From the NCBI GenBank assembly GCA_947629235.1, contig CANRCX010000002.1, forward strand, positions 20,824-84,823: a DNA stretch of 64,000 nt, read 5' to 3'. A program made the translations under genes and the position numbers. Numbering within the stretch: position 1 is the first letter of the stretch; the number at the start of each line of letters is the position of its first letter. Below, piece after piece: positions 22,216 through 55,731 of the stretch. The DNA comes from an uncultured Bacilli bacterium. GTDB taxonomy: Bacteria; Bacillota_I; Bacilli_A; RF39; UBA660. The notes below the pieces were generated by a model. That model was not told where the DNA came from, did no database searches, and was given only the letters and a program-made list of their open reading frames with translations.

Positions 22216-22221
22216 ATTCAC

Positions 22222-22743: not shown

Positions 22744-22744
22744 T

Positions 22745-23140: not shown

Positions 23141-23155
23141 TATATTCAATGTTAT

Positions 23156-23185
23156 AAAAGCTCATTTATTGAGCTTTTTTCTTTT
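23156..23185 (+). terminator. Terminator after rpsI
   Basis: AAAGCTCA-ttta-TTGAGCTTT is followed by a T run. Confidence 0.7.
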
Positions 23186-23264
23186 AGTAAAATGTTAACT
23201 TTATAAAAAAATATTTAAAAAAATAATTAATAATGTTATAATCTTATCATAGGGAGAGTGTGAT

Positions 23265-24197: not shown

Positions 24198-24204
24198 GAG
24201 GACT

Positions 24205-37307: not shown

Positions 37308-37382
37308 GCAGGTATAGTTCAACGGTTAGAATGTGGCCTTGCCAAGGCTAAGATGCCGGTTCGATTCCGGTTACTTGCTCCA
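37308..37382 (+). tRNA. tRNA-Gly (GCC)
   Basis: The 75-nt cloverleaf has acceptor GCAGGTA/TACTTGC, anticodon loop TTGCCAA, T arm GCCGG-TTCGATT-CCGGT and an encoded CCA. Confidence 0.9.
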
Positions 37383-37423
37383 GTGACGAATCTGTTCGAA
37401 CTTTTCGGACATTCAAATATATT

Positions 37424-37448
37424 TCATCTCAATTTGAGATGATTTTTT
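37424..37448 (+). terminator. Terminator after tRNA-Gly
   Basis: TCATCTC-aattt-GAGATGA is followed by TTTTTT. Confidence 0.7.
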
Positions 37449-37647
37449 GTTACATAAAAAATAATCATAGAATTATTTTGATACATTGGTCAAAATATCT
37501 AGTGGGTTAAGTATTTTGTCATAAACAAAATACTCAAAAACTGAGAGATATTAACATTGTTTGGCAGTTTATATGATAAAATATTAGTAGTATTTTATTT
37601 TAAAGAAATTTCCAGACGCATCTGACTAATTTCAGAAAGGAGCAATT

Positions 37648-38676
37648 ATGTTAGAAAAAAGCAATAATAAAATCATTCAAGAAATTAAAGATATTATTTT
37701 GAGCAGCAGAAAAAAGGTGGCTTATGAAGTAAATAATACTATGTTATATGCATATTGGAATGTTGGAAGAATTATTGTTGAAAATGAACAAAATGGTAAT
37801 ATTAAAGCAGAATATGGAAAACAAATTATGAAGGAACTTTCTAAGGAATTAAGAAAAAGTTTAGGATCAGGTTTCTCAGTTAGCAATTTATTTAATATGC
37901 GTAAACTTTATATAACTTATCCAAAATTCCAGACAGTGTCTGGAAAATTAAGCTGGTCTCATTATTGTGAATTATTAAGTATTGAGAACGTTGATGAACG
38001 TAACTTTTATGAAAAGGAATGCTTAAATTCTAATTGGAGTGTACGAGAATTAAAAAGACAATTAGAAACTTCTTTATTTGAAAGATTACTACTTTCTGAA
38101 GGAAAAAATAATAAGAAAAAAGTTTATGAATTATCAAAAGTTGGACAAACACTTAATGCACCGGAAGATGTATTAAAAGAACCTTATGTGTTTGAATTTT
38201 TAGGAGTTAAAGAAAATAAACCAATTTTAGAAAAAGATTTAGAACAAAAGTTAGTAAAACATATTGAAGAATTTTTACTTGAGTTAGGTAAAGGTTTTAT
38301 GTTTGTTGGGACTCAACAAAGAATTACCTTAGGAAATACTCATTATTATGTTGATATGGTGTTTTATAATAAAATATTAAAATGTTATGTTTTAATTGAT
38401 TTAAAAATTGGACAAATGAAAGCTGAATATGCAGGTCAAATGAATATGTATCTAAATTACTATAATGAAGAAATAAATGATAAAGATGATAATAAACCAA
38501 TAGGAATAATTCTTTGTAAAAGTAAAAAAGATATTGCAATTGATTATGCTCTAGGTGGACTTTCCAATAATGTTTTTTCTTCAACTTATACTTACTATAT
38601 TCCTAATAAAGAACAATTAATTAATGAAGTAGAAAAAGTTTTAAATGAAACTGAAAAAGATGATATTGAGCATTAA
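37648..38676 (+). CDS. DUF1016 / YhcG-family PD-(D/E)XK nuclease-domain protein
   Basis: It has the family-typical N-terminal helical region ending in ..FQTVSGKLSWSHY.. and a C-terminal nuclease core (YYVDMVFYN..LKCYVLIDLKIG), i.e. D..(D/E)xK. Confidence 0.78.
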   Translation: MLEKSNNKIIQEIKDIILSSRKKVAYEVNNTMLYAYWNVGRIIVENEQNGNIKAEYGKQIMKELSKELRKSLGSGFSVSNLFNMRKLYITYPKFQTVSGKLSWSHYCELLSIENVDERNFYEKECLNSNWSVRELKRQLETSLFERLLLSEGKNNKKKVYELSKVGQTLNAPEDVLKEPYVFEFLGVKENKPILEKDLEQKLVKHIEEFLLELGKGFMFVGTQQRITLGNTHYYVDMVFYNKILKCYVLIDLKIGQMKAEYAGQMNMYLNYYNEEINDKDDNKPIGIILCKSKKDIAIDYALGGLSNNVFSSTYTYYIPNKEQLINEVEKVLNETEKDDIEH

Positions 38677-38792
38677 TTTGAATAAAAACTGTAGATATCT
38701 ATAACACTCGCTTTAAATTGATAATAATTGTGCTAACAGAAATGTTAGTTTTTTATTACAAAAAATCTATGAATCTTGAAGTTAAAAATTAA

Positions 38793-39512
38793 TTATATTA
38801 TATTTTTATAAACTTCATTAATCTTTTTAATAACCATATTAACACAATTATCCATAAGTTCATCTAATTCATTTTTAGTAAAAACTTTATAATTATGTTT
38901 AAATAATTTTTCTTTAAGACTTAACTTATTAAATTTTGCAAATTCATTTTTTAAATAATTAATTCTATATTCAACTAAATCATCATTTAAAAAGTTTCCA
39001 TATAAATCATTAATATTCTTTTTTATTAATTTATCATCAGTAGGAATTGTAATTAAATTATCATTAAATAAATATTTTCCATATAATTCAAAGTCATAAT
39101 GTTTATATTTTCTTTTTAATCTTTTTTTATCTTCAATATCAATTTTTAATACTTTGTTATTTTTTAATTTAATTCCAACTATATTATTGTCATCATCTTG
39201 AACCCATTTAGTGGTATAAATTTTTTCATTATAAAATAAATCAGTTAATAAGTGAGCATAATATCCTAATATTAATGGATTATTTAATTTGTTTTTGTAT
39301 GTGTTTAAAAATTTATTTATATCTATCATTTTTTCTTGTGGTACAGTTGGAAATGGTAAATTTTCATTATAATAATGAGCTTCATATCTTGTTATAGGAG
39401 TTCCTTTATCTACATCTGGAATTAAATTGCCATATAAAAATAATTCTTCATTTAATTTAAGCTCTTTATTTGCTTTTTTAGCAATAGCTAAATGTACTGA
39501 CCAACTTGGCAT
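38793..39512 (-). CDS. Zinc-dependent phospholipase C-like / metal-dependent hydrolase family protein (tentative)
   Basis: The N-terminal SWSVHLAIA (a W..H metal-ligand pattern), NLIPDVD and GYYAHLLTDLFYN suggest this family. ATG 39512 lies 10 nt after AGGA. Confidence 0.4.
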   Translation of the reverse strand: MPSWSVHLAIAKKANKELKLNEELFLYGNLIPDVDKGTPITRYEAHYYNENLPFPTVPQEKMIDINKFLNTYKNKLNNPLILGYYAHLLTDLFYNEKIYTTKWVQDDDNNIVGIKLKNNKVLKIDIEDKKRLKRKYKHYDFELYGKYLFNDNLITIPTDDKLIKKNINDLYGNFLNDDLVEYRINYLKNEFAKFNKLSLKEKLFKHNYKVFTKNELDELMDNCVNMVIKKINEVYKNII

Positions 39513-39676
39513 AATAATCACATCCTATTATTTTAGAATTCATTATAAAATAATTATAACATAATATTAGTTAAAATATATTTTATATTAATTTAGTATA
39601 GCAAATAAAAATATTTATAACTGACATAAATATTTCCTTTTCTTTTGATATTATTAATTTAGAAAGGAGAATTATT

Positions 39677-40702
39677 ATGAAACATACACATACTGAAACA
39701 ACAGAAATTAATTTTTCTAATTTAGAAAAAAGATTACTACAAATAAATGATGAGTTTACATACATTCGTTTTAAAGATTTTATAGAAAAACCAACTTTAA
39801 TTGTTGGTACTGGTGGATCTAAAGCAGTTACATATTACATAAAAATGTATTTAGAATCTAAAGGAGTTTTATGTGAAGTAATTGAACCAAGAGACTATTT
39901 TTATAAAGAAAATATTAAACAATTTGATAGTTTAATTGCTATTTCTAATAGTGGAAAAACAAATGGTATAATGGAAATACTTAAACACTTTAATAATAAT
40001 TATTCAGGTAAATGTTATTTGATTAATAGTGAACTAGATGAAAAGTTAAATACCTTTAATAATATTAATTGGGGTAATAATAAATATAATAATCATGAAA
40101 AAAGTTTTATTTCAATTATTCCGACACTTGCACCTATGTTAATGATTTTAGATTTAAATGTTTTAAATGAATTACAAAAGACAGAATTATCACGTAAAGA
40201 TTTAATCAAAATAAATAATAAAATAAAACAATTAATAGAAAAAAGTAAAGAAACAATTAATAATTTTAACTTCAATTTTAAAGATACAAATTTAATACAA
40301 ATTTTATCAGGATATGATACTATGACTTCATCTTCAATTTTAGAATCTAATATGATAGAAACAGGAACTTCTAGTGTTGTTGTACATGATAAGGGTTCTT
40401 ATTGTCATGGTAGAAGTAATCTTATATTTCAAAATCAAGAAAGTCCTATTATTTATTTAACACATAAAATGAAAGAATTAGATAATGAAATATTATCAAT
40501 ACTTAGACAAGAATATCCTAATATTTTTCTTTTTCATACTTTAGATGAAGATGCAAATATTTTTTGGAAAGAATATTATTTAGCTTTACAAATGTATTTT
40601 TTATCTAAAAAAATAGCTGATGATAAAAAAATTGATCTTACAATGCCTGAATATAATTCAAAAGTAGTACAAAAATTATACAAATATAAAGGTGAAATGT
40701 AA
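39677..40702 (+). CDS. Double SIS (sugar isomerase/phosphosugar-binding)-like protein
   Basis: The first half has LIVGTGGSKAV..AISNSGKTNG (SxSGxT). The second half has a similar Rossmann-like layout with YCHGRSN. Its size of about 340 aa matches AgaS/FrlB/GlmS-isomerase-type double-SIS proteins. Confidence 0.45.
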   Translation: MKHTHTETTEINFSNLEKRLLQINDEFTYIRFKDFIEKPTLIVGTGGSKAVTYYIKMYLESKGVLCEVIEPRDYFYKENIKQFDSLIAISNSGKTNGIMEILKHFNNNYSGKCYLINSELDEKLNTFNNINWGNNKYNNHEKSFISIIPTLAPMLMILDLNVLNELQKTELSRKDLIKINNKIKQLIEKSKETINNFNFNFKDTNLIQILSGYDTMTSSSILESNMIETGTSSVVVHDKGSYCHGRSNLIFQNQESPIIYLTHKMKELDNEILSILRQEYPNIFLFHTLDEDANIFWKEYYLALQMYFLSKKIADDKKIDLTMPEYNSKVVQKLYKYKGEM

Positions 40703-40711
40703 TAATTATTA

Positions 40712-41650
40712 CTAATTAATATTCCATTTTGGTGGATAAATATAATTTATTTTTTCTTTTTTTGGAATATAGTGCTTTTTGATTTTAGTTCTATTAGATT
40801 TTAATTCAGGTATAGCTTGTCTACAATATTTATCTAATTCACAAAATATATTTTGACAATCTATAAGTTGTAGTGGCCTATTACCAATTCTTTTAAAGTT
40901 TAAGTTAAGTCTTTTAAATTCTTCATCTTGATGTTCATACATATATTTAATAATATCTTCATTACTCATTTTACCTTTATCAATAAAACATTTTTTAATT
41001 CCACGAAGTGATCCAGGTCCAGCTATTGTAAATTCATCTTCTTTCCAATTTATGACTTCACTATAATTAATATCAGTTACTAATTGATAAGCCATAAAAT
41101 TTCCAATTAAAGGATAACTTTTAATTATATTAAATGCTTCTTCCATAGTTTTACATTTAATAATTTTATTTTGTATTTTATCTTCATTAAACATTTTATT
41201 AAGAAGTGCTAAATGATTATCATGCTTTCTATCAAATCCAAATGCTTTATTTGCACAACTTATGTATGCATCATTATATATTTTAATACCATTTGATATA
41301 GCTTTCTCTAACACTTTAGAAAAATTTTTAATATCAAATGTTTTTAAAGTAATATCTTCAAAATTATTTAATAACAATTCCCATGTAGATTCTTTATTAA
41401 ATAGTTTAAATAATAATATTCTAAATAACATATCTTCATTAGAATATGTTTTACCATTATATATTACATTTCTTAGTAAATATTGACTAACTCTATCATT
41501 AACTCTATAACTATTACAAAATTTATATTCTTGTAGAATTTTATCATTTGTCCAAGGAGACTTATCTCCATTTAATTTTTTCCAAAATATATTTTGTCTT
41601 TCACATGCAAAATACCAATATAAATCATATACTTCTTGTCTTTTTTTCAT
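40712..41650 (-). CDS. aGPT-Pplase-like / 5-hmdU-DNA-kinase helical-domain family protein (putative DNA base hypermodification protein). Assigned from motif recall only.
   Basis: The N-terminus VYDLYWYFACERQNIFWKK..SPWTNDKILQEYKFCNSYRVNDRVSQYL and the later AGPGSLRGI match my recollection of this family. There is no P-loop. The start codon lies 3 nt after the radical SAM stop, with the GAGGTG RBS spanning that stop. Confidence 0.45.
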   Translation of the reverse strand: MKKRQEVYDLYWYFACERQNIFWKKLNGDKSPWTNDKILQEYKFCNSYRVNDRVSQYLLRNVIYNGKTYSNEDMLFRILLFKLFNKESTWELLLNNFEDITLKTFDIKNFSKVLEKAISNGIKIYNDAYISCANKAFGFDRKHDNHLALLNKMFNEDKIQNKIIKCKTMEEAFNIIKSYPLIGNFMAYQLVTDINYSEVINWKEDEFTIAGPGSLRGIKKCFIDKGKMSNEDIIKYMYEHQDEEFKRLNLNFKRIGNRPLQLIDCQNIFCELDKYCRQAIPELKSNRTKIKKHYIPKKEKINYIYPPKWNIN

Positions 41651-41653
41651 AAA

Positions 41654-42658
41654 TCACCTCATACATTTTGGATCTCTTGAGTTAATACATTTTTTTAAAG
41701 TTAAAACTTTATCTTCATTATCAGTATAATTAGCAATTATTTTTTGACCAATACATCCACTTTTACATATAGAATATTGTTCACAAGAAGAGCAAGTATT
41801 ATTTGTATTAAATTTTCTTATATTACTAAAATATTCTGAATTATATATATCATTTAATGAATTTTCTTTTATATTTCCACTAATACCTAATTTAGTAAAA
41901 TATTTTATTGAATCACAAGGATATGCTATACCATCAAATCCAATTATCATTATTTCATCAGCAATAATACAAGGCGTATTTTTAATTCCTAATATATTCC
42001 AAGGTGTTCCTAATCTTATTTTATCTTTATCATTTGAATTCAAATAAAGATTTTTAATAGCTAATAATTCATCTTTAGATAAATCCATATTAGTTGTACC
42101 TTTTCCATGTGGAACAAATCTTAATAAACTAATTTTATCAAAATAATTTTTATATTTGAAAGTATTAATAGTTTCATTTACTACTTTTTCTAATTTGGAA
42201 AATGAATCTTTTGAAACTGTATAATGAAATCCTAACTTTGCATTATTTCTATCAAAAACCTTATCAAAAAATTGTTCATTGTTATAAATAGAAATATCTT
42301 TTTCATTAGATAATGAATCAGCTAATGAATAAACTATTTTATTAAGACCAAGATTTATTAATTCTCTATATTTATTTAAAGTTTCATCTGTTCTATATGC
42401 AAAAGTATAAATAGTTGATTTCATTTTTAATTTTGAAGTTAATTCTACAAGTTCTGGAAGTTTATCATACATTAAAGGTTCTCCACCAGTAAAAACAATA
42501 GTATCAGCACCCATAATTTTTGCTTCTTTAATAACTCTAGATACATCTTCAAAATCTAATTCTTTTAAATTACTAATATTACTAGTAGCATTACTAGAAC
42601 AATGCTTACAATTTCTAGAACATCTATTTGTTAATTCTATTTTTACTTCTTTTAACAT
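41654..42658 (-). CDS. Radical SAM enzyme with C-terminal SPASM/twitch-like Cys cluster
   Basis: CSRNCKHC (CxxxCxxC), the GGEPL SAM-binding motif and the C-terminal CSSCEQYSICKSGCIG are present. ATG 42658 lies 8 nt after GGAG; the longer ORF starting at 42700 is unlikely. Confidence 0.85.
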   Translation of the reverse strand: MLKEVKIELTNRCSRNCKHCSSNATSNISNLKELDFEDVSRVIKEAKIMGADTIVFTGGEPLMYDKLPELVELTSKLKMKSTIYTFAYRTDETLNKYRELINLGLNKIVYSLADSLSNEKDISIYNNEQFFDKVFDRNNAKLGFHYTVSKDSFSKLEKVVNETINTFKYKNYFDKISLLRFVPHGKGTTNMDLSKDELLAIKNLYLNSNDKDKIRLGTPWNILGIKNTPCIIADEIMIIGFDGIAYPCDSIKYFTKLGISGNIKENSLNDIYNSEYFSNIRKFNTNNTCSSCEQYSICKSGCIGQKIIANYTDNEDKVLTLKKCINSRDPKCMR

Positions 42659-42761
42659 ACTACCAGCTCCATAAAGAATAAATATATAAATATTATACAA
42701 TAAATGTTAATAATTCTCTATCATATAATAAAAAAGTTAAACAAATTTGAAATGTTTAACT

Positions 42762-43421
42762 TTACTTTAAAATTTTAGTATATTCACTTTCTTTATTAAT
42801 ATTATTAACTTCACAATATTTCTTTTTAAATTCTTCTTTATTTTCTGCTAGAAGTGAAATATCTTCTAAAAATTTTTGATAATCTTTATCTTCAAAATAC
42901 ATTTTTTCTGTTGCATAACCTTTTTTACCAAATTTATTAATTATGTGTTGTCTTGATTCTTCTATTATTTGATCAAAAGTATAATTAGGAAAATGTTTTA
43001 ATCTATAAGCATATGTTCTTTTTAATGGAACTTCTACTAATGTATTTCTATCAGCAGAAGAAACAATTTTACCATAAATACTTCTAGGATCACCTTCCAT
43101 ACTTGCTCTATGATCATAAACAGCTTCTGACATTATTTTAATTTCGTTTTCACTAAAAAAATTTCTTAAATTTTTATCGTCACTTAACATATTTGCTGAA
43201 ATTTTTTCATGATTTTTAGCATCAATAAAATGACCTATATCATGATAAGCCGCTATTGTATAAACCATATCATAATTAATATCTTTAACTTCATTAGCAA
43301 ATTTTAAACTTCTATTAATAACATATTTAATATGGTCTAAATTATGACCTAAATCATTTTTACTATAACTAGGAAAAATATTTTCTTCTATATATTTTTG
43401 TAAATCTTTATTTAATTTCAT
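42762..43421 (-). CDS. HD-domain phosphohydrolase
   Basis: HNLDHIKYV .. AAYHDIGH .. DHR .. SSADR give an H..HD..D metal-ligand pattern. Confidence 0.75.
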   Translation of the reverse strand: MKLNKDLQKYIEENIFPSYSKNDLGHNLDHIKYVINRSLKFANEVKDINYDMVYTIAAYHDIGHFIDAKNHEKISANMLSDDKNLRNFFSENEIKIMSEAVYDHRASMEGDPRSIYGKIVSSADRNTLVEVPLKRTYAYRLKHFPNYTFDQIIEESRQHIINKFGKKGYATEKMYFEDKDYQKFLEDISLLAENKEEFKKKYCEVNNINKESEYTKILK

Positions 43422-43443
43422 ATTATCTCACCTAAAAAATATT

Positions 43444-43740
43444 TTATTTATGTTGTTCATTTCCTTTTAATGATTCATAAAATGATCTATTAGCCGCTAC
43501 AACTTGATCAACAGTTTCCCATTCTTGACCATCTGCAGATTTTAAATTCGCAGTTTTAGTATAATTTGTTTGTGTATTAAATTTAGATTCCATTCCATTT
43601 CCATAAGGAGTTCTAGAATCAAAATTAGATTTCATTCCATTTTCGTAAGGTGTTCTAGGATTAATTTTAGGCTCATATATCTTTCCAAATGAATTTAAGT
43701 TATTAATATTTTGGCCATTATTTAAATAATCATTATACAT
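43444..43740 (-). CDS. Hypothetical small Asn/Gln-rich protein with an internal tandem repeat
   Basis: RTPYENGMKSNFDS and RTPYGNGMESKFNT are tandem repeats. ATG 43740 lies 7 nt after AAGGAA. Confidence 0.45.
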   Translation of the reverse strand: MYNDYLNNGQNINNLNSFGKIYEPKINPRTPYENGMKSNFDSRTPYGNGMESKFNTQTNYTKTANLKSADGQEWETVDQVVAANRSFYESLKGNEQHK

Positions 43741-43861
43741 AATATTATTTCCTTTCAAAAATATTATATCATTTTGCTAATAATTTTTATAGTATATTAC
43801 TAAAAACATATAAAATATGCTATACTCATATTAGATAATAAAATAGTTTAGGTGATTTAAA

Positions 43862-45007: not shown

Positions 45008-47356
45008 TTACCAAGAGCTGCCTCCGCCACCACCAGAGCCACCACCTGATGATCCACCGCCAGAAGATCCTCCACCACCAGAGCTGCCACCTGAGCTAGA
45101 TGGACTTGAAGTCATAGCATTTTGAATAGAATACATTGTAGAATGCATAAAATTATTAAATGTTATTATACTAAATGTATCCGTACTATCATACCAATCT
45201 GGTGATTTTATTGCAATAGATTCAAATTTATTAATCCATTCATCTGATACATCTAAGGCATAAGCATAAGGCAATATATTATAAAAGTATTCTGGATCTT
45301 TATGAACTAATGCTTCTAATTTTTCTTTTTCAACTGTTTCTAAAAAATCTTTAAATCCTAATAATTTACCTAACATTTCATTACCAAATTTTGTTCTTTT
45401 TGGTATATATATCAAGCAAATAACTAGTCCACAAATACAACATAAACCAAATATATAAGCAACTAAGTAAACTATATTTTGTGTAAGTATTGGTAATAGA
45501 AAATATATAAATGGAAGAATACCAAACATTATACCCATTAGTATTCCAAATATTTTTGAAAATCCATTTGAAACACTACTGTATAAACCTTTTGTACTTG
45601 GTGTTAAATTTTGAAACAAACAATAAAACATAAATGTAAATCCAATAGCTGGGAATAACGTAAAAATTATCATAGCATATTGTTCAGCATAATCTAATAC
45701 AGGTGGTAATGAAATAAGTAAATAAGATATAATAATCATTATTCTAACAAGATTTAATTTGTTTTCTGCAGATTTTTCAAATATTTTATATTTTTCATTA
45801 AGTTTAATTTGTAATAATATTGAATTTATTGTGTGATAAAAATTATTTTCTAAATCTTTTGATGTAACTTCGTTAAGATTTTCTGTTTCAGTATCATCAA
45901 CTAATGAAAATAATGAAAATTTCTTTCTAAATAATCCTTCTAAGAATTCTTTTTCATATATATTTTTACCATCATAATCTTTTAATTTAGTTATTTTAAA
46001 ATCTTTTGATTTGAAAAATAAACCTTCTTTTTCATATTCAGTAATTTTAATATAACCTTTATTTGCTAAATATATTAAAAGTGATACTACATTTTTATAA
46101 TTTGCTTCACCTTTAAAATAATATGCAATTTCTAAACTATTGAATCCTTCAGGTGGATAAAATTCAACAGTTTTAACTACTAAATCATCACGACCATATT
46201 TATTCCACCAGTATATAGAAATTCCTAAAAATGATAAGGGCAATAGAAATATAATAATGTAAAAATAGTTAAATGCTAATTTTGCATTTTTAAAATATCC
46301 CTCTTCAAGTTCACACCTAACAGTTAATCCTTCACCAGGTTTAAGAATACCATCATAATTACCAGTTATTTTATTACCAACAACATTATATTTTATATTA
46401 CTATTATCAGTTGAACCTTTAAAGCCAGATGAAAATCCTAATTTACTGGAATTAAAAGATTTAGGCATAGTTATTGTAAATGTAACGTTACCAATGTATG
46501 TATCCCATTCAGTACCAATTATATTGTAATAAAGTTCATCATAATTTTTCATAGGATCTTTTCCTAAATTATATGTGTATTTTATTACATAAGTTTTTTT
46601 ACCAGTTAATGTTCTATTTGCATTTCCTATTTTAATTGTATAATCATTACTATTTTTAGATTTAGAAAAAGTATCATCAACACTTACATTTGTTATTTGA
46701 ACTCTATTTTTAGTTATTGTACCATCTAATCTACTAATCTCATTTCTAAGTGGAATAGTTCTAATTATTCCATGCTTAGGAGTATTAAAATATGCAGTAA
46801 TTGTTTCTGTAATATCAAATGTATTATTTTCATTAACTATTATATTTATATCATAATTATCAATTACATAACCATTAGAACTATATAGTCCAATTTCACT
46901 AGGCGTATTTGATGTTGTATCTGTTTTTGAATCATCTACTTCAATTGATAAAGTGTAATAATATATTTCACTAATATCATGTCCATTTAAAATACTTAAA
47001 TTAGACATTAAATTAAAATCACTTGTACCAACAACTGCAGTTTCTTGATTATAACTATTAGCAATTAAATTATAATTATAATCATAATAAGTTACATTTG
47101 ATTTATAATCAATTTCTTCATTTGATTTATTAATAATTGTACCAGTTAAACCAAAAGCTTGAGTAGAAGTAGAAGAATAATCTTTAAAAGATATATCAGA
47201 AAAATATAAATTTTCAATAGTTAATGATTGATTATCTTCTTTAATATCTTTAAATTCTAATTCATTTGATATAGCATAAGAATTTAATGGACAAAATAAA
47301 AATAGAGATAATACAATTATTAAAAATAAAAATAATTTATTAATAATATTTCTCAT
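45008..47356 (-). CDS. DUF2207-domain membrane protein with C-terminal Gly/Ser-rich tail
   Basis: A signal peptide and large extracellular domain are followed by TM clusters, and the protein ends in SSGGSSGGGGSSGGGSSGGGSGGGGGSSW. It sits immediately downstream of LemA, the classic LemA-DUF2207 pair. Confidence 0.7.
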   Translation of the reverse strand: MRNIINKLFLFLIIVLSLFLFCPLNSYAISNELEFKDIKEDNQSLTIENLYFSDISFKDYSSTSTQAFGLTGTIINKSNEEIDYKSNVTYYDYNYNLIANSYNQETAVVGTSDFNLMSNLSILNGHDISEIYYYTLSIEVDDSKTDTTSNTPSEIGLYSSNGYVIDNYDINIIVNENNTFDITETITAYFNTPKHGIIRTIPLRNEISRLDGTITKNRVQITNVSVDDTFSKSKNSNDYTIKIGNANRTLTGKKTYVIKYTYNLGKDPMKNYDELYYNIIGTEWDTYIGNVTFTITMPKSFNSSKLGFSSGFKGSTDNSNIKYNVVGNKITGNYDGILKPGEGLTVRCELEEGYFKNAKLAFNYFYIIIFLLPLSFLGISIYWWNKYGRDDLVVKTVEFYPPEGFNSLEIAYYFKGEANYKNVVSLLIYLANKGYIKITEYEKEGLFFKSKDFKITKLKDYDGKNIYEKEFLEGLFRKKFSLFSLVDDTETENLNEVTSKDLENNFYHTINSILLQIKLNEKYKIFEKSAENKLNLVRIMIIISYLLISLPPVLDYAEQYAMIIFTLFPAIGFTFMFYCLFQNLTPSTKGLYSSVSNGFSKIFGILMGIMFGILPFIYFLLPILTQNIVYLVAYIFGLCCICGLVICLIYIPKRTKFGNEMLGKLLGFKDFLETVEKEKLEALVHKDPEYFYNILPYAYALDVSDEWINKFESIAIKSPDWYDSTDTFSIITFNNFMHSTMYSIQNAMTSSPSSSGGSSGGGGSSGGGSSGGGSGGGGGSSW

Positions 47357-47367
47357 TATTACCTCCA

Positions 47368-47925
47368 TTATAATTTAATATCAATATTTTCTTTTTCGTT
47401 TTCATTAGCTTCAAACATTTCTTTTGTTTTATAGCCAAGTAGTTTAGCTACTATATTACTTGGAAACATTTCAACTTTATTATTATAAATTCTAATTGTT
47501 CCATTATAATATTTTCTTGAATTAGCAATATCTTCTTCAACTTTAGTAAGCTTATTACCTAAATCAATAAAATTTTGATTAGCTTTTAAATCAGGGTAAG
47601 ATTCAGCTAAAGCTATAAGTTTATTGAGATCTTTTGATAATTGCTCATTAGTTTTTAATTTTTCATCGTCAGATAATTTTTCATAAATACTATTTCTTAA
47701 TTCAGTAATTTCTTTTAAAGTATCTTTTTCATGTTTAGCATATTCTTTAACTATTTCAACCATGTTTGGTATTAAATCCCATCTTTTCTTTAAATATACA
47801 TCCATTGTTGAAAAAGCTTCTTTAACTTTATTATTTAATTGTACAAAGCTATTATATATAACTAAAAAAGCTATTAGTAATATAAAAATTAATGCTATAA
47901 TACCATAAAGTATAAAATAACTCAT
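47368..47925 (-). CDS. lemA: LemA family protein
   Basis: An N-terminal TM is followed by ..YNSFV.L...V.EAFS..DV.LKRR.DLIPN.V..VK.YA.HE...L.. Confidence 0.85.
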   Translation of the reverse strand: MSYFILYGIIALIFILLIAFLVIYNSFVQLNNKVKEAFSTMDVYLKKRWDLIPNMVEIVKEYAKHEKDTLKEITELRNSIYEKLSDDEKLKTNEQLSKDLNKLIALAESYPDLKANQNFIDLGNKLTKVEEDIANSRKYYNGTIRIYNNKVEMFPSNIVAKLLGYKTKEMFEANENEKENIDIKL

Positions 47926-48045
47926 ATGACCAATATTTACCTCCTTTACTATTTATTATATTTTAACATATATTTATTTATTTTAATATGCTTTTTTTAA
48001 AATATATATGTTAATTATGTGTTAAAATATTAATAGGTGGTTAAT

Positions 48046-48477
48046 ATGAAACCTATAAGAAAAGCTGTAAGAACATTTTTAATAAATAATAACAAAGTAT
48101 TAACAATAAAATATAATGATGGATTTTATGATGTTCCTGGTGGAAAAATTGAAGATAATGAAAATTCTATTGAAGCAGCATTAAGAGAATTTAAAGAAGA
48201 AACATTAATTGAAATTAAAAATCCAAAATATGCTGGTAATTTAATAATTGAATATCCTGATCGTATATATGATTTAGATATTTATTTAACTTGTGAATAT
48301 ATAAAAACTGATTTAAATGATAATTGGATAGAAATTAATGAACTTTTAAATAATGATAAATTATTACCTGTTATACATTTATTGGAAAAATCATATTATA
48401 ATGAATTAATTAATTTAACAAATTTTAAATTTCATTTTATATCTGATTTAAATCACAATATAATAAATAAATTTTAA
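48046..48477 (+). CDS. NUDIX hydrolase
   Basis: The Nudix box is GGKIEDNENSIEAALREFKEETLIE. ATG 48046 lies 5 nt after AGGTGG. Confidence 0.85.
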   Translation: MKPIRKAVRTFLINNNKVLTIKYNDGFYDVPGGKIEDNENSIEAALREFKEETLIEIKNPKYAGNLIIEYPDRIYDLDIYLTCEYIKTDLNDNWIEINELLNNDKLLPVIHLLEKSYYNELINLTNFKFHFISDLNHNIINKF

Positions 48478-50078: not shown

Positions 50079-50720
50079 TCAGTATTTTATTTTTTTACTT
50101 ATTTCATTGTTAATAGCATAATTTGATACAGCCATAAAATTCTCATCATATGGGTAAGTTTGTTGTCCAAATTTAAGCCACATTGTTGACCAAGAATTAC
50201 TTTCATTAAGTAATTCTTTAACTTTATCATTTATGGTATTATTATTTTCTTGTTTAGTTAAATCAACACATTTTTCTTCATCATATAATTTACATTGTAA
50301 ATCACATTCTAATTTATCACATTGATATGCAAATAAAGATTCTTTAGTATTATGTGAATCAAATTCTAAAAATAATTCTTCAATTTGATTTCCATTTAAT
50401 AAATCATCTAATATTTTATGTACTGCTTCATGTTCTATTATTTCTTTTTCTTCTCTAGATATTTGAAATTGAGTTAAATCTCCAATAACAGTTTCCCCAA
50501 GTTCATGAATTGCTAACATAAATATTACTTTCATAAGATTTATATCATATTGATATTCAGATGCCATAGCAATAGCTAACATTTGAACTCCAAATATATG
50601 TTCAGCAACACTTTCAATTCTATCTCTTTGAACATTCCAATTTTTCCAACCAGTTCTAATAATATTTTTAAGTTTGTTACATAGTACATAATATTTAATA
50701 ACATTTTCTTCTTTTGACAT
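50079..50720 (-). CDS. HD-domain 5'-deoxynucleotidase-like protein (YfbR/HD_3 type)
   Basis: ESVAEHIFGV .. HELGETVIGDLT fits this type. ATG 50720 lies 4 nt after GAGGG. Confidence 0.7.
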   Translation of the reverse strand: MSKEENVIKYYVLCNKLKNIIRTGWKNWNVQRDRIESVAEHIFGVQMLAIAMASEYQYDINLMKVIFMLAIHELGETVIGDLTQFQISREEKEIIEHEAVHKILDDLLNGNQIEELFLEFDSHNTKESLFAYQCDKLECDLQCKLYDEEKCVDLTKQENNNTINDKVKELLNESNSWSTMWLKFGQQTYPYDENFMAVSNYAINNEISKKIKY

Positions 50721-50886
50721 AAAACCCTCATTTCGAAAAAATATTATAATATTTGAATAATTTTTAGTCAATAATAAAAAATATTCATAAATTTATTGTA
50801 AATCAAATATAATTTATTGATAAACGATAAAAATATATTGAAAAAGATAAAATAATGTGTTATATTTTTTATAGGAAGTGAAGAAA

Positions 50887-51348
50887 ATGAAAAATAATTT
50901 AAAAAGTTTAGGATCTGCTTTAAAAATAATATTACAAGTTTTTAGTGTACTAGGAATTATATTTTTATTAGGACTTTATAGCATAACAAAATTATTAAAT
51001 TTACATTATGACTTATTTATTATAATGATTTATCCATGTGGAATATGCTTTCTATATTTAGTTTATCAATTTATTAATTTATTTGATAGTTTAAAAAATA
51101 ATAATCCTTTTTGTCATGAAAATGTTAAAAGACTTAATAATAGTATGGTATGTTCATTATTAATTTGTATTTTAGTTTTAATAGCATTACTTGTTAGTTT
51201 GTTTTATGAATATTATAGCTTACAATTAAAAGTAGCTATTGGTTTTATATCAGCATTATTCTTTGCAATTAGTATTGCTTTACTAATATTAAGTGAATTA
51301 TTTAAACAAGCAACTATATACAAAGAAGAAAATGATTTAACAATATAG
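50887..51348 (+). CDS. DUF2975-like membrane protein
   Basis: Four TM segments and the motif NNPFCHENVKRL (family-typical ..PF...N...L) sit immediately upstream of a YozG-type HTH gene. Confidence 0.6.
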   Translation: MKNNLKSLGSALKIILQVFSVLGIIFLLGLYSITKLLNLHYDLFIIMIYPCGICFLYLVYQFINLFDSLKNNNPFCHENVKRLNNSMVCSLLICILVLIALLVSLFYEYYSLQLKVAIGFISALFFAISIALLILSELFKQATIYKEENDLTI

Positions 51349-51356
51349 GAGGTATT

Positions 51357-51572
51357 ATGGCAATAATAGTTAATTTAGATGTAATGATGGCTAAAAAGAA
51401 AATATCATCACAGGAACTAGCAGAAAAAATTGGAATAACTCAAGCTAATTTATCAATATTAAAAACTAATAAATGTAAAGCAATAAGATTTAGTACTTTA
51501 GAAAAATTATGCGAAGTATTAGATTGTAAACCAGGAGATATTTTAGATTATGAAAAGGAGAGTAAAAAATGA
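51357..51572 (+). CDS. Small XRE/YozG-type HTH transcriptional regulator
   Basis: MAIIVNLDVMMAKKKISSQELAEKIGITQANLSILKTNK..IRFSTLEKLCEVLDCKPGDIL fits this type. Confidence 0.85.
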   Translation: MAIIVNLDVMMAKKKISSQELAEKIGITQANLSILKTNKCKAIRFSTLEKLCEVLDCKPGDILDYEKESKK

Positions 51573-52975
51573 TAAATTTTATTTTATATATTTTTATTCT
51601 TGCTTTATGGAATGTTGTATTATTTTATGATAAATCTTATGGAATATCAGTATTATTATTTATAATTCCACTTCTTATATTAATTTATAATGTATTAAAA
51701 AAGAATAATAAAATTAAAAATAAATATGGATTATTATTTATGATACCAATAATATTATTATCAAGTACATATTTTATATTTGACAGTTCAGTGTTTAAAG
51801 AATTAAATTTTTTAGCAATAATTTTATTATTTATACTTATGTATATATTTACAATAAAACCTAATTATAATTTATTTTCATTAATTAAAGAATCGTTTGA
51901 TTTATTATTTAAACCTTTTTCATTAATTGGAGATTATTTTGAATTAGTAATTAATAAAATAAGTAAAAAAATTAAAATAGGTAGTAAAAGTAAAAAAATA
52001 ATTAAATCAATATTAATATGTACTCCAGTAGTAATTGTAGTATTAGCTTTATTATCTAGTGCTGATATGATATTTGATAAAATATTTTCAAATATATTTA
52101 ATAAATTCTTTAATTTATTTGATAGTAGTATATTTGGTAAATTTATATTATTTATAATTATATTTTTCTTAATTGGTGATACTTTATTATATTTAATAAA
52201 AAAATATCCTAAAGAAGATGAATTTAAAATAGAAAAAGATATATTAGATATTTCTACTATTAAAATACTTATTACTACACTTAATATAATTTATTTAATA
52301 TTTGATTTTATACAAATTAAATCATTAATATTTCATTATGGACTTGATAGTATAAATTATGCTGAATATGCAAGACAAGGATTCTTTGAACTTATGATAG
52401 TATCAGTAATTAATATAAGTGTATTATTACTAGCTAAAAATAGTAAAAGTAATAAAAAAGATCAAAAGTATATAAATATAATGAGTATATTTATGGTATT
52501 CTTAACTCTTATAATAATTATATCTTCATTTTTAAGAATGAATTTATATGAACAAGCTTATGGATATACTACATTAAGATTATTAGTTTATATTAGTTTA
52601 ATAACAGAAATTATATTATTAATACCAACTATACTTTATATATTTAAAGAAAACTTTAATGTTTTAAAATATTATTTAATTATAATATTAAGTGTATATA
52701 CAATAATTAATTTTATTAATATTGACTATATAATAGCAAGAAGAAATGTTAATAGATATTATGAAGGAAAAGAAATAGATATTAGTTATTTAGAAAATTA
52801 TCATACTGATAATTTAAAAGTATTAAGTGAATTATATAAAAATTGTGATAATGAGACAAAAGAAAGTTTAAATACATATTTTAATAATCTTGAAGATTAT
52901 AATTCTAATATGAAATGGCAAGAATTTAATATATCAAAAAATAGTAATTTAAAACAAATCAAAAAAGTGGATTGA
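51569..52975 (+). CDS. Large polytopic membrane protein (DUF4153/DUF4173-like, tentative)
   Basis: About 12 TM segments. Its start overlaps the HTH gene stop by 4 nt. Confidence 0.45.
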   Translation: MINFILYIFILALWNVVLFYDKSYGISVLLFIIPLLILIYNVLKKNNKIKNKYGLLFMIPIILLSSTYFIFDSSVFKELNFLAIILLFILMYIFTIKPNYNLFSLIKESFDLLFKPFSLIGDYFELVINKISKKIKIGSKSKKIIKSILICTPVVIVVLALLSSADMIFDKIFSNIFNKFFNLFDSSIFGKFILFIIIFFLIGDTLLYLIKKYPKEDEFKIEKDILDISTIKILITTLNIIYLIFDFIQIKSLIFHYGLDSINYAEYARQGFFELMIVSVINISVLLLAKNSKSNKKDQKYINIMSIFMVFLTLIIIISSFLRMNLYEQAYGYTTLRLLVYISLITEIILLIPTILYIFKENFNVLKYYLIIILSVYTIINFINIDYIIARRNVNRYYEGKEIDISYLENYHTDNLKVLSELYKNCDNETKESLNTYFNNLEDYNSNMKWQEFNISKNSNLKQIKKVD

Positions 52976-53003
52976 TCCACTTTTTTTAAAAAATTAAAAA
53001 TTG

Positions 53004-53270
53004 TTAGAATATTAATTTATATAATAATCCTAAGAAAACAGCTACCGCGATAATTCCCATTATAATTAGAAAAATAAATAAACCTTTTTTCTCTTTATAT
53101 TTAATAATAGAACGAATAATACCAACTATTAATATAACAAAACCTGCTAGTACAAAAATTTTTTCAATCATCATTCCACTGCTAAAACTATTAAGACTAA
53201 TAAGAATACTTCCAAGTACTATTTCTAGTATATTATCATCTAATTGTTTTTCTTTTTTCAAAATGCCCAC
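53004..53270 (-). CDS. Hypothetical small membrane protein
   Basis: 88 aa with three hydrophobic segments and a GGAGGTGGGC-type RBS. Confidence 0.45.
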   Translation of the reverse strand: MGILKKEKQLDDNILEIVLGSILISLNSFSSGMMIEKIFVLAGFVILIVGIIRSIIKYKEKKGLFIFLIIMGIIAVAVFLGLLYKLIF

Positions 53271-53376
53271 CTCCTTATTATTAAATTCTAAATTAATTAT
53301 ATAAAATATTATAAATAAAATCTATCATAAGTGTAAAATAAATTAGTCATGTGATATAATTAAATGAGAGGTTTAT

Positions 53377-55731
53377 ATGAAAATAGATTATTTAAATAAT
53401 AAAATAATTATAGTAAAAGATGGTACTAAAAATAGTTTACTTGATTTAATTAATTCAAATAAAAAATTATTAAATATTAAAATAATTACATTAAATGAAT
53501 TAAAAAGAAAATATTGTTTTGATTATAATAAAGAAACTATTTATTACATAGTTAAAAATTATAATGTAAATATGTCTATTGCTAATAAATATATAGAAAA
53601 TTTATATTATATAAATAATGATGAAATAGATGATGATAAAGTTAAATTTTTATATTCTTTAAAAAAAGATTTAATAGATAAAAATTTAATTATAGAAAAT
53701 AATTTATTTAAGAATTTTTTAACAAATAAAAATATTATTTTATATAATTTAAAATATGTTGATAAATTTTATAAAAATATATTTAATGAATTAAAAGAAT
53801 CAAATAATATAGAAGAAATTAATAATGAACATGAGACTAGTATTAAAGAAATATATATGGCACAAAATTCTGAAGAAGAAGTTTCTTTTGTAGCAAGTAA
53901 AATATGTGAACTTATTAAAAGTGGAGTTAATATTAATAATATAAAACTTGCTAATGTTAAAAAGGAATATTCATTTATTATAAATAAAACACTTAAAATG
54001 TTTAATATTCCTGTTACATTACCTAGTTTTAGTACTATAAAGGGTACTAATATAGTAAAAAGTTTTAAAGAATTATATAGTAATGATATAAATACTACTA
54101 TTGAAGAATTAAAAAAATTAGTAAAAACTAATAGTGATAAAAAAATATTTAAACAAATTATTAACATATTAAATTCATATTCATTTGAAAATTATGATAA
54201 TGTAAAAGAATTAATATTTGAAGAATTAGATAATATTAAAACAGAAAATATTAAATATAAAAATTCTGTTAAAGTAGTAGATATAACAGATGAAATAATT
54301 AGTGATAATGATTATGTGTTTTTAATTAATTTTAATGAAGGAATTATTCCAATAAACTATAAAGATGAAGATTATTTAAATGATAAAATTAAAGATAAAT
54401 TAAATATTAGTGTGTCTTCTGAATTAAATAAAAATGCTAATCTTGAATTAAAAGAATGTATTAGTAAAATTAAAAATTTAATAGTTACTTATAGTAAATA
54501 TGATACTAATAATGAAATATATGTATCACTTTCTTATGATGATAAATTATTTATAAATAAAGATATAGATATTAACTATAATAATTCTGATTTATATAAT
54601 AAAATAAAATTAGTTAGTGATATGGATGAATTAAATAAATATGGTGTTATATCAAATGAACTTGTTTTATTAAATAATCATTATAAAGATATTAAATATT
54701 TAGATTATAATAATAAATTTAAAGGTATTGATATTAAATCTTTACATGAATATTTAACTAAAGGATTAACTTTATCTTATACAAGTATTAATTCATATTA
54801 TGAATGCGCTTTTAAATATTATTTAAATTATATATTAAGATTAAATAAATATGAAGATAATTTTAGTACAGTAATTGGTAATATATTTCATGAAGTATTA
54901 TCTTATGCTTTTAATGATGACTTTGACTTTGATAGTAAATGGAAAGAATCAGTAGAAAAAGAAAATACTAGATATTCTTTTAATAATATGGAAAAGTTTT
55001 TTCTAAATAATCTAAAAGATGAACTTATTTTAATAATTGAAACTATAAAAGAACAATTGAAATACACATCACTTAAGAAATCTATGTATGAAAAAGAAGT
55101 AAAAATTGAAATAAATAAAGATTTAAATATTATATTTACAGGTAAAATAGATAAAGTTTTATATGATGAATTTGATGGTGAAACTATATGTGCAATTATT
55201 GATTATAAAACAGGATCTACTAGTATGGATTTAAAATATGTTCCATTTGGTTTAAAAATGCAATTACCAGTATATATTTATTTACTTAAAAATTCTAATA
55301 TTATTGGTAATGTAAAAGTTGGTGGATTTTATTTACAAAAAATTATTAATAATGATAGAGATGTTAGTACAAGAATATCTAATTTAAAATTACAAGGTTA
55401 TACAAATAGTGATGAAAAAATAATTGAAAAAGTAGATTCATCTTATGCAGATTCTAAAATTATAAAAAATTTAAAATTAACTAATAGTGGTTTTTATAAA
55501 TATTCTAAATTGTTATCAGAAGATGAAATAAATGAATTATCTACTTTAGTTGAAACTAATGTAAAAATAGCATCAGATAATATAGTAAATGGTAAATTTG
55601 ATATTAATCCAAAAATTGTTAACAATAATAATCTTGGATGTAATTATTGTAAATTTAAAGATATTTGTTATATGAAATATGAAGATACCGTTAAACTTAA
55701 TATTGAAAGTGAGGTAGAAGAAAATGCCTAA
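53377..55731 (+). CDS. addB: AddB/RexB-type helicase-nuclease subunit (short form)
   Basis: The C-terminal PD-(D/E)XK core (GKIDKV .. IIDYKTG) is flanked by an Fe-S Cys set (C in SYYECAFKYY plus CNYCKFKDIC). It overlaps addA by 8 nt. Confidence 0.8.
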   Translation: MKIDYLNNKIIIVKDGTKNSLLDLINSNKKLLNIKIITLNELKRKYCFDYNKETIYYIVKNYNVNMSIANKYIENLYYINNDEIDDDKVKFLYSLKKDLIDKNLIIENNLFKNFLTNKNIILYNLKYVDKFYKNIFNELKESNNIEEINNEHETSIKEIYMAQNSEEEVSFVASKICELIKSGVNINNIKLANVKKEYSFIINKTLKMFNIPVTLPSFSTIKGTNIVKSFKELYSNDINTTIEELKKLVKTNSDKKIFKQIINILNSYSFENYDNVKELIFEELDNIKTENIKYKNSVKVVDITDEIISDNDYVFLINFNEGIIPINYKDEDYLNDKIKDKLNISVSSELNKNANLELKECISKIKNLIVTYSKYDTNNEIYVSLSYDDKLFINKDIDINYNNSDLYNKIKLVSDMDELNKYGVISNELVLLNNHYKDIKYLDYNNKFKGIDIKSLHEYLTKGLTLSYTSINSYYECAFKYYLNYILRLNKYEDNFSTVIGNIFHEVLSYAFNDDFDFDSKWKESVEKENTRYSFNNMEKFFLNNLKDELILIIETIKEQLKYTSLKKSMYEKEVKIEINKDLNIIFTGKIDKVLYDEFDGETICAIIDYKTGSTSMDLKYVPFGLKMQLPVYIYLLKNSNIIGNVKVGGFYLQKIINNDRDVSTRISNLKLQGYTNSDEKIIEKVDSSYADSKIIKNLKLTNSGFYKYSKLLSEDEINELSTLVETNVKIASDNIVNGKFDINPKIVNNNNLGCNYCKFKDICYMKYEDTVKLNIESEVEENA

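Follow-up and report, generated by a model that had tools for sequence, protein, structure and literature searches.

To our knowledge, the HMUDK_hel domain (Pfam PF18723) has been encountered in two settings only, as the helical domain of the phage DNA kinases with which thymidine hypermodification begins, and within conflict systems predicted to be nucleotide-based. The subject of the present work is a standalone bacterial HMUDK_hel protein and its partner, a radical S-adenosylmethionine (radical SAM) enzyme with a SPASM domain (hereafter rSAM), both encoded in a stretch of 64,000 nucleotides from an uncultured Bacilli bacterium (assembly GCA_947629235.1, contig CANRCX010000002.1, positions 20,824 to 84,823), hereafter referred to as the window. 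In the literature searched, the only radical SAM enzyme linked to thymidine hypermodification was gp53 of Pseudomonas phage M6, a protein similar to spore-photoproduct lyase (SPL), which acts as the isomerase of 5-(2-aminoethyl)-2'-deoxyuridine (5-NedU) synthesis and was considered by its authors to be the first radical SAM enzyme installing a DNA modification (PMC8989533). The amino acid:DNA transferases (AADT) and diamine:DNA transferases (DADT) that take part in thymidine hypermodification were described as DNA-glycosylase-like, with a helix-hairpin-helix (HhH) fold (PMC8989533, PMC13458397). Furthermore, an Escherichia coli system with 5-hydroxymethyluracil (5-hmU) kinase and thymidylate-synthase domains, validated by DefensePredictor, was found to protect against phage (PMC13092281).

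A full-text search of the literature returned no paper mentioning PF18723 or a bacterial rSAM/HMUDK_hel pair. The pair is thus apparently undescribed, and it is the only linked unit within the patch of genes that follows a tRNA-Gly(GCC) gene in the window. As a whole this patch is ordinary, being neither one integrated island nor a defence operon, and we are confident that it represents the start of a flexible chromosome stretch, a mosaic with a single linked pair. The explanation that we favour combines this flexible mosaic with an rSAM/HMUDK_hel unit that may act on a 5-substituted pyrimidine in DNA or nucleotides, and we consider it rather probable.

The HMUDK_hel gene (40712-41650, reverse strand) codes for 312 amino acids and was matched at full length (E 5.9e-107), with the Pfam domain covering residues 6-284. 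The rSAM gene precedes it on the same strand in an open reading frame (ORF) at 41654-42700 (Radical_SAM and SPASM, Pfam E 1.7e-17 and 3.9e-10); its true start is probably M15, matching the call in the locus L001 (loci and contigs of other genomes are cited by L numbers), which would give a protein of 334 residues and a gene at 41654-42658. At the junction, rSAM ends with ATG AGG TGA, followed by ttt and then by the ATG of HMUDK_hel, so that the Shine-Dalgarno motif GAGGTG of HMUDK_hel lies inside the rSAM gene and the two genes are translationally coupled. A promoter-like site (42692-42720, reverse strand) with an extended -10 element, TGTATAAT, was located by consensus match in the 103-nt spacer between rSAM and the preceding HD phosphohydrolase gene, and it is possible that the bicistron has its own promoter there.

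For the comparison among related organisms, HMUDK_hel loci were taken from GTDB species-representative genomes, and the best 80 of 293 confirmed stretches were used, with 75-92% protein identity to the window copy. The sole recurrent neighbour of HMUDK_hel in these 80 loci was the rSAM/SPASM gene. Of 74 informative species loci, 39 had it immediately upstream of HMUDK_hel and in the same orientation, its position being invariable whenever it adjoined. The rSAM ORF ended 3-4 nt before the HMUDK_hel start in 28 loci, and the remaining paired loci showed small overlaps or short gaps, coming from the choice of ORF start or from frameshifts; a locus retrieved via the rSAM protein showed identical pairing. 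Frameshifted rSAM copies were seen in L032, L043 and L054, where errors of metagenome-assembled genomes (MAGs) are possible. It should also be added that two copies of the pair occurred on separate contigs of MAG CALXCA01 (L023 and L039), which may reflect duplication, mixed strains or an artefact of binning. The related genomes were labelled as 'uncultured Tenericutes', 'Bacilli' and 'Clostridium sp. CAG:492/710/343', and going by these labels we judge the clade that carries the pair to be RF39/RFN20-like gut Bacilli.

Between species, the identity of the pair ranged from 66 to 92%. Relative to the window copies, the median non-synonymous (dN) and synonymous (dS) divergences were 0.064 and 0.66 for HMUDK_hel (80 loci) and 0.12 and 0.58 for rSAM (33 loci), and the dN/dS ratio of about 0.1 fits long-term strong purifying selection on the pair. 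L030 is the one rSAM-bearing locus that also keeps the LemA and DUF2207 genes of the window, and there the pair was 84-88% identical to the window, versus 54-65% for LemA (dN 0.215, dS 1.14) and DUF2207 (dN 0.357, dS 0.95). In two other loci, DUF2207 had a dS similar to that of HMUDK_hel or lower. A synonymous divergence of 0.5-0.9 does not count as recent, and at 21% GC the Nei-Gojobori estimates carry too much noise to tell if the pair is younger than the host genomes.

Decayed rSAM remnants, with stops and in several frames, precede an intact HMUDK_hel gene in L029:9263-9979, L044:9510-9970 and L066:2-719, and the rSAM-present and rSAM-absent states are intermixed on the HMUDK_hel tree; rSAM has been lost repeatedly. 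Since HMUDK_hel was kept intact where the rSAM gene had decayed, it must have an activity independent of rSAM. Among the HMUDK_hel positions conserved only in company with rSAM, D205 alone stood out, which is insufficient to define an interface.

The HMUDK_hel family comprises 4,293 clusters (50% identity, E <=1e-3), in which the window clade collapses to approximately one, the next relatives reaching at most 57% identity. An AlphaFold2 model built from a diverse alignment was all-helical (predicted local distance difference test score, pLDDT, 94; predicted template modelling score, pTM, 0.91). Its match in BFVD was the 5-hydroxymethyl-2'-deoxyuridine (5-hmdU) DNA kinase of phage SP10 (template modelling score, TM, 0.84; E 2.5e-15), followed by PhiW-14 and Pplase1 proteins with TM of 0.6-0.7 (0.66 for Pplase1) and by AADT proteins with TM of about 0.5. 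No solved structure matching HMUDK_hel by sequence was found, and the fold search in PDB gave no significant match, its top seven entries all being HhH-GPD DNA glycosylases (Ogg, EndoIII, AlkA). An earlier note on the window, made from the sequence alone, had labelled the protein Pplase-like: the family was wrong, as the protein is PF18723 HMUDK_hel, while the relation to Pplase1 holds at the level of the fold.

Across 139 sequences, 56 alignment columns were invariant and shared with the kinase-fused relatives, and many of them are Asp, Glu, Arg, Lys or His. The invariant residues include D36, R49, D52, R53, K142, H143, D193, E204, G211-P-G213, D264, E271 and K274, with the G211-P-G213...G217 motif placed at the start of a helix in the model. 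Such a pattern resembles that of an active site or of a highly specific binding pocket and not that of a passive scaffold, and the modelled structure would support a role in handling of bases.

The rSAM protein meets the criteria of the Radical SAM/SPASM superfamily by having the CxxxCxxC motif (C27-x3-C31-x2-C34, numbered on the ORF translation) and the SPASM pattern of seven cysteines (C244, C261, C303-x2-C306-x5-C312-x3-C316, C338). Its radical SAM core begins at about residue 7 of 334, leaving no room for an N-terminal peptide-recognition element. The scores against NCBIfam were far below every family cut-off, PqqE being among the best matches, and the best sequence relatives in PDB were generic (GDGT-MAS, BlsE, MoaA, BtrN, SuiB and PqqE; E 1e-8 or weaker, identity at most 20%); BlsE and MoaA among them act on nucleosides or nucleotides. 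The rSAM forms a narrow family of 421 clusters (90% identity, E <=1e-10), and a scan of 2.9 million viral contigs, with a sensitivity suited to close relatives, detected no member. The pVip models matched residues 19-177, that is the generic core, and an identity as viperin was rejected, considering that the match was limited to this core, that a SPASM domain is present and that no viperin model occurred among the best 25 NCBIfam matches. A role in queuosine salvage, pairing a Qng1-like protein and a rSAM of QueL type, was dropped for having no evidence of any kind.

On this basis we propose that HMUDK_hel, as its fold suggests, may bind and extrude a 5-substituted pyrimidine of the thymine type, located in DNA or perhaps in a free nucleotide, with the rSAM/SPASM enzyme filling the place that the P-loop kinase holds in the phage and conflict-system relatives. 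The 5'-deoxyadenosyl radical generated by rSAM would then attack the C5 substituent of the base, either oxidising a hydroxymethyl to a formyl group, in the manner of anSME and BtrN, or making or breaking a C-C or C-N bond at that substituent. After the loss of rSAM, HMUDK_hel would retain an activity of its own. Here we infer the substrate, the division of labour and the chemistry of the pair, as well as the choice between maintenance and an anti-phage role. We give even odds to a pyrimidine base or nucleotide as the substrate of the pair, and hold any specific chemistry to be improbable. Conservation, native composition and housekeeping neighbours speak for maintenance of host DNA or nucleotides, and the history of the family, the variable location and the recurrent loss of the partner speak for defence. 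Tentatively, the bicistron may be an undescribed, oxygen-independent system that modifies the C5 position of a thymine-type base, whether within DNA or in the pool of nucleotides, with rSAM replacing the kinase, and this could cover both a new bacterial route of DNA modification or repair and a new antiviral nucleotide chemistry.

Several points weigh against the action on a 5-substituted pyrimidine. We know of no biochemistry for any standalone HMUDK_hel protein. The matches to glycosylase folds were weak (TM 0.22-0.49, E >=0.3), and the Pfam HhH-GPD and Pplase models gave no match to HMUDK_hel even at E up to 10. The rSAM model was unreliable (pLDDT 64, below 50 in the SPASM part) and its structural matches were generic and fail to separate one function from another. 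Among the ORFs scanned at 37.6-58.8 kb there was neither a source of 5-hydroxymethyluracil nor a kinase or a transferase. The adjoining rSAM gene is missing in about half of the species, and the enzyme could be inessential, could make a small-molecule co-substrate or could act on something else. As for vertical inheritance, the dS of the pair (0.5-0.66) lies somewhat below those of LemA and DUF2207 in L030, which may leave room for some horizontal exchange, and in another species the pair adjoins genes for a CHAT protease, a Mob_Pre relaxase and a large serine recombinase (L179-L182, 5001-11005), where it may sit at the edge of a mobilisable element.

The wider family gives grounds for considering the pair as an anti-phage system, which would recognise phage DNA or nucleotides of the 5-hydroxymethyluracil type and damage them or convert them into a replication poison. 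Distant HMUDK_hel members are fused to thymidylate-kinase-like P-loop, MazG plus MazG_C, or glycosyltransferase domains, and relatives at 44-55% identity adjoin genes for TIR, ThsB, LOG-like, Nmad2, MazG, ImmA/IrrE, CapV-like and ABC-3C proteins, with thymidylate synthase and dCTP deaminase genes likewise found beside distant members, on chromosomes and plasmids; by gene content these neighbourhoods look like nucleotide-centred conflict systems. On a gut phage contig (L085:6456-8996, also L086), an ORF for a GIY-YIG/NUMOD3 homing endonuclease splits the 5-hmdU kinase (HMUD2) from an HMUDK_hel that is 39% identical to the window protein, and thymidylate-synthase-like and then HD/YfbR-like genes follow downstream, as in a classical hmU cassette. 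Among isolated phages, 493 records held HMUDK_hel relatives, with identities of at most 30% among those listed. The anti-phage explanation thus has parallels in prokaryotic viperins and in the thymidylate-kinase/MazG/HMUDK_hel conflict systems, as well as in the protective E. coli system with a 5-hmU-kinase domain and thymidylate synthase (PMC13092281). It would also agree with the surroundings of the 44-55% relatives, with the variable chromosomal position of the pair and its occasional Abi_alpha, ORF6N, NERD or mobile-element neighbours, with the repeated loss of rSAM and with the hmU cassette encoded on gut phage contigs. An identity of 75-92% over 80 loci at dN/dS of about 0.1 is, however, atypical of defence genes, the flanking genes are mostly housekeeping, and no conserved sensor, effector or toxin partner accompanies the pair. 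Furthermore, no specific PADLOC model matched, pVip matching the generic rSAM core only, and rSAM was not found among the viral contigs. We therefore regard an anti-phage function as rather unlikely.

Another possibility is that HMUDK_hel is a housekeeping enzyme of DNA repair or nucleotide sanitation in these Bacilli with reduced genomes, such as a glycosylase that removes an oxidised or a deaminated pyrimidine, with rSAM as an optional oxygen-independent helper for one class of lesions. The sister group, at 68-73% identity, belongs to spore-forming bacteria and occurs in housekeeping-like settings such as TspO-HMUDK_hel-NUDIX; in this clade HMUDK_hel at 71-73% identity adjoins NUDIX and lies near Ham1. 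In one spore-former locus (L170:4134-6945, HMUDK_hel 71% identical), another rSAM of the PqqE/MoaA-like branch lies upstream, with a small GNAT acetyltransferase gene in between; this rSAM has 26% identity to that of the window over 164 residues and no SPASM match on record. A gene for an OGG-type glycosylase adjoins HMUDK_hel in L056 and L058. The 126 genes flanking the module fell into 129 Pfam families, mainly of housekeeping functions (aminoacyl-tRNA synthetases, NusG, ribosomal protein S2, pseudouridine synthases), with a few Abi_alpha, ORF6N or NERD genes. The very strong conservation and the native composition fit a repair enzyme as well, as do the presence of HMUDK_hel alone in about half of the species, the HhH-GPD glycosylases at the top of the PDB fold search and the HD and NUDIX genes near the pair in the window. 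What speaks against repair is the weakness of the glycosylase similarity, the links of the other family members with conflict systems and with phage hypermodification, and the lack of a fixed chromosomal position, which is unusual for a core repair gene. A repair or sanitation function is, in our opinion, on the unlikely side too.

Having considered the pair, we turn to its surroundings, for which the earlier note had envisaged an accessory patch or an old island at the tRNA, with the nuclease and the putative modifier as a restriction-modification-like (R-M-like) unit, or else merely unrelated neighbours. The tRNA-Gly(GCC), its terminator and all seven genes were found where that note had placed them. 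The left flank of the tRNA consists of genes for uracil phosphoribosyltransferase (UPRTase, upp), PAP2 and Patatin proteins, and the tRNA-Gly itself (37308-37382, forward strand; ARAGORN, Rfam 64.3 bits) closes this conserved left-hand synteny block; Rfam found nothing else over 36-46 kb. On its 3' side lies a predicted intrinsic terminator (37424-37450, forward strand), a hairpin with an 8-bp stem and a T-run, placed at 37424-37442, with the tail TTTTTTGTTA.

The first gene thereafter (37648-38676, forward strand) encodes a nuclease of the PD-(D/E)XK family with YhcG_C and DUF1016_N domains (Pfam E 2.7e-56 and 8.6e-45), which also matched phrog_22762. A check with PADLOC for a known defence system recognised this gene product alone, as the unvalidated candidate PDC-S02 (1.9e-134); there was no PADLOC match for HMUDK_hel, for the SIS protein or for the Zn-PLC-like protein, and the HD protein had a marginal match to Cas3-HD (E 0.0039). 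The nuclease is followed by a gene for a Zn-dependent phospholipase-C-like (Zn_dep_PLPC, here Zn-PLC-like) protein (38793-39521, reverse strand), scoring 28.8 bits in Pfam, barely over the cut-off of 26.8, and lineage-specific, with homologues in the same-species contigs L002 and L003 only. The SIS-domain gene (39677-40702, forward strand) converges on HMUDK_hel. The protein was expected to be a double-SIS protein: its N-terminal SIS domain was recovered at 24.1 bits, slightly below the cut-off of 25, along with a MurR/RpiR SIS match in PDB at 4e-4, and the second domain is merely hinted at by the double-SIS protein 2dec (E 0.22), so two SIS domains are probable.

Beyond the pair lies the HD phosphohydrolase gene (42762-43421, reverse strand; Pfam HD 3.6e-10, phrog_3921 8e-30), which weakly matched PDB 5dqv (5e-3), presumably the nucleotide pyrophosphohydrolase YpgQ of Bacillus subtilis; as the gene immediately preceding the pair on its strand it was seen in this species alone. 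With the genes for a NUDIX protein at 48037-48477 and for a HD_3/YfbR-like 5'-deoxynucleotidase at 50079-50771, it makes three small genes of nucleotide-hydrolase type within 8 kb. The last of the seven genes is a repeat ORF of 98-104 amino acids (43444-43758, reverse strand), with a 14-amino-acid repeat present twice (a 42-nt repeat, family D6), which had no family match and no relatives beyond its own species. Further to the right, the gene for a 786-residue DUF2207 membrane protein (45008-47368, reverse strand) is paired with LemA (47368-47925), and a repeat of 15-nt period at 45023-45094 corresponds to the Gly/Ser-rich C-terminal tail of the former.

The order upp-PAP2-patatin-tRNA-Gly was compared among 80 related metagenomic loci, with upp used as anchor, and was retained in relatives whose upp is 80-92% and patatin 58-66% identical, PAP2 being found in 33 loci, patatin in 24 and the tRNA in about 23; some relatives additionally retain tRNA-Cys, sulfatase and ogg genes in this left-hand block. 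To the right of the tRNA, none of the window genes of 37.6-48 kb was present in the 24-33 relatives that share the left block. The cargo there depends on the lineage, with three distinct conserved sub-blocks, each coming after one to five variable genes, and none of these downstream blocks was found anywhere in the window, so that the right-hand border of the flexible stretch is not definable. A match of the window gene at 50079 (w50079) as a shared downstream block was rejected, being a paralogue located upstream of upp; homologues of this YfbR-like gene occur upstream of upp in nine relatives at 36-49% identity. Synteny genuinely breaks at the 3' flank of tRNA-Gly, as seen in at least 24 relatives, and the shift in gene content noticed earlier falls exactly on this breakpoint: the left flank is kept and the content of 37.4-43.8 kb is variable next to the tRNA. 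Same-species contigs with an identical patatin gene stop 140-190 nt past it, at tRNA-Gly (L183:2946-3134, L184:1924-2064); their coverage is low (about 3x for L183), and these contig ends may be a trivial break or strain variation at the tRNA.

Genes for a large serine recombinase, with Resolvase and Recombinase domains, lie 0.5-1 kb 3' of the orthologous tRNA-Gly(GCC) in two relatives (L105:12992-14767, L119:13376-15289), and Relaxase and TnpV domains were found at the post-tRNA position as well, thus the site receives mobile DNA in this clade. Within the window, the signs of an integrated island were wanting. The GC content of the patch (0.20-0.25) is the same as that of the remainder of the window (about 21% throughout), and 3-kb windows at 36-45 kb had tetranucleotide z values from -0.02 to -1.4, at or below the window mean. 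Tetranucleotide outliers were confined to 19000-25000 (z 1.7-2.6, GC 0.24-0.28) and 51000-55000 (z 2.3-2.7, GC 0.16), the latter overlapping a DUF4153 gene and the start of the AddB-like gene of the AddB/AddA-like genes at 53377-58840. Stretches of 15-25 nt from the tRNA 3' end did not recur, with up to 3 mismatches allowed, in the whole window or 3' of the tRNA in 18 relatives; no serine recombinase was detected in the window by phmmer in all six frames, no integrase or transposase by Pfam scans of the ORFs at 37.6-58.8 kb, and a generic search for direct and inverted repeats at 36.5-48.5 kb gave AT-rich chance matches only. Of four features of a tRNA-linked integrated island the locus thus shows one, variable content at the tRNA, and lacks the recombinase, the direct repeat and the deviant composition.

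With respect to co-inheritance, a gene of the YhcG family was located within 10 kb of HMUDK_hel in 3 of the 80 species loci (L028, L046 and L059; 30-48% identity), the SIS gene near the pair in one close relative (L024, with a 70% homologue) and the HD gene near HMUDK_hel in a single locus of the 80, while the genes for the Zn-PLC-like protein, the repeat ORF, TM150 and DUF308 were near HMUDK_hel in none. In L030, both LemA-DUF2207 and the pair are present and the intervening genes differ from those of the window. Because only rSAM stays with HMUDK_hel and the other genes are not co-inherited, the stretch is a mosaic of small independent gains and losses, and the YhcG gene in it is an independent accessory gene.

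In the light of these data, it is very unlikely that the entire patch constitutes a single genomic or defence island, old and immobilised, integrated at tRNA-Gly, in which YhcG and an rSAM/HMUDK_hel modifier make up an R-M-like unit. For such an island one may cite that synteny breaks exactly at the tRNA, that serine recombinases, a relaxase and TnpV occur at the same site in relatives, and that YhcG is the PADLOC candidate PDC-S02, with YhcG-family genes near HMUDK_hel in the three loci named. Yet the tests in the window revealed no recombinase, att-like repeat or compositional signal, rSAM alone remains with HMUDK_hel across 80 species, L030 has other genes between LemA-DUF2207 and the pair, and YhcG lies on the opposite strand, 2 kb off, beyond two unrelated genes. 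From the earlier proposal, therefore, the boundary at the tRNA, a site hosting mobile DNA and the absence of integrase, transposase and tRNA-end repeat (the repeat and the serine recombinase over the whole window, the Pfam scans over 37.6-58.8 kb) are upheld. The single island did not survive the flat GC and tetranucleotide profiles and the empty searches for a recombinase and for a partial tRNA-end repeat of 15-25 nt, nor did the nuclease-modifier unit, with a YhcG homologue near HMUDK_hel in just 3 of 80 species, nor the expectation of a known defence system; the note's fallback of unrelated neighbours is correct for five of the seven genes and fails for the rSAM/HMUDK_hel pair. That rSAM/SPASM is a maturase of peptides that are made by ribosomes and modified after translation (RiPPs), acting on the 104-amino-acid repeat protein, with the adjacency of HMUDK_hel incidental, is hardly credible and was rejected: most SPASM enzymes do modify peptides, the best NCBIfam and PDB matches include PqqE, SuiB, SkfB and YydG, and the small repeat ORF is located 0.8 kb upstream of rSAM in the same orientation, but this ORF is not conserved and occurs in this species only, no conserved small ORF stands beside rSAM in 39 other species, the core starting at about residue 7 leaves no space for a peptide-recognition domain, all NCBIfam scores are far under the family cut-offs, and the tight coupling with HMUDK_hel would be left unexplained.

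The flexible segment at the tRNA flank adds little new by itself. What is new here is a distinct and extremely conserved HMUDK_hel clade coupled to a radical SAM/SPASM enzyme. The host bacteria are anaerobic, and the TET/JBP enzymes, which oxidise thymine elsewhere, need oxygen and therefore could not work in these bacteria. Should DNA or nucleotides prove to be the target of the pair, this would be the second case of a radical SAM enzyme in DNA base chemistry, and a family that numbers more than 4,000 clusters at 50% identity would gain a function; should HMUDK_hel by itself prove to serve in repair or as a reader, the role of the domain in the phage kinases would become clearer.

Compared with described systems, the nearest are the phage 5-hmdU DNA kinases (Bacillus phage SP10, Salmonella phage ViI, Pseudomonas phage M6), which have the same PF18723 over its full length, the fold match to SP10 having a TM of 0.84, and share many invariant polar residues with the window HMUDK_hel. 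The latter differs in having neither a fused nor an adjoining P-loop kinase, in being a bacterial chromosomal gene and in its rSAM/SPASM partner. From the phage cluster of thymidine hypermodification, the kinase, the thymidylate-synthase-like hydroxymethylase and the Pplase2/AADT transferase were not found in the ORFs at 37.6-58.8 kb, whereas the phage locus L085, taken for comparison, has the last two. The aGPT-Pplase/AADT/DADT group (PMC8989533, PMC13458397) has a related all-helical fold, with TM of 0.66 for Pplase1 and about 0.5 for AADT; its AADT/DADT transferases, however, need 5-phosphomethyl-deoxyuridine (5-phosphomethyl-dU) made by a kinase, no kinase was found beside the window pair, and HMUDK_hel constitutes a different Pfam family. 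The gp53 protein of M6 offers a likeness in being a radical SAM enzyme with a genetic link to a protein of the HMUDK/Pplase fold group. It resembles, however, spore-photoproduct lyase and is without SPASM, while the window rSAM belongs to the PqqE/MoaA/BtrN-like SPASM branch, for which no relative was found on viral contigs.

In the thymidylate-kinase-like/HMUDK_hel/MazG conflict systems, HMUDK_hel is homologous at 44-57% identity and has the invariant residues in common, whereas the window clade is a separate tight group that is without their partners and has rSAM or no partner at all. With anSME, BtrN, BlsE, MoaA and viperin, the window rSAM shares the CxxxCxxC motif, auxiliary-cluster cysteines and a compact build with no peptide-recognition domain; in contrast to them, its matches are generic, no family cut-off is reached and the SPASM model is unreliable. 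With tRNA-adjacent genomic islands and integration hotspots, the end of synteny on the 3' side of the tRNA, variable cargo and recombinases in two relatives are common ground, and the window departs from them in having no integrase found, no direct repeat, no compositional difference and a cargo that is not co-inherited. Altogether, the rSAM/HMUDK_hel pair stands outside five known kinds of systems, namely the phage thymidine-hypermodification cluster, RiPP maturases, viperins, R-M-like units and the defence systems described in PADLOC.

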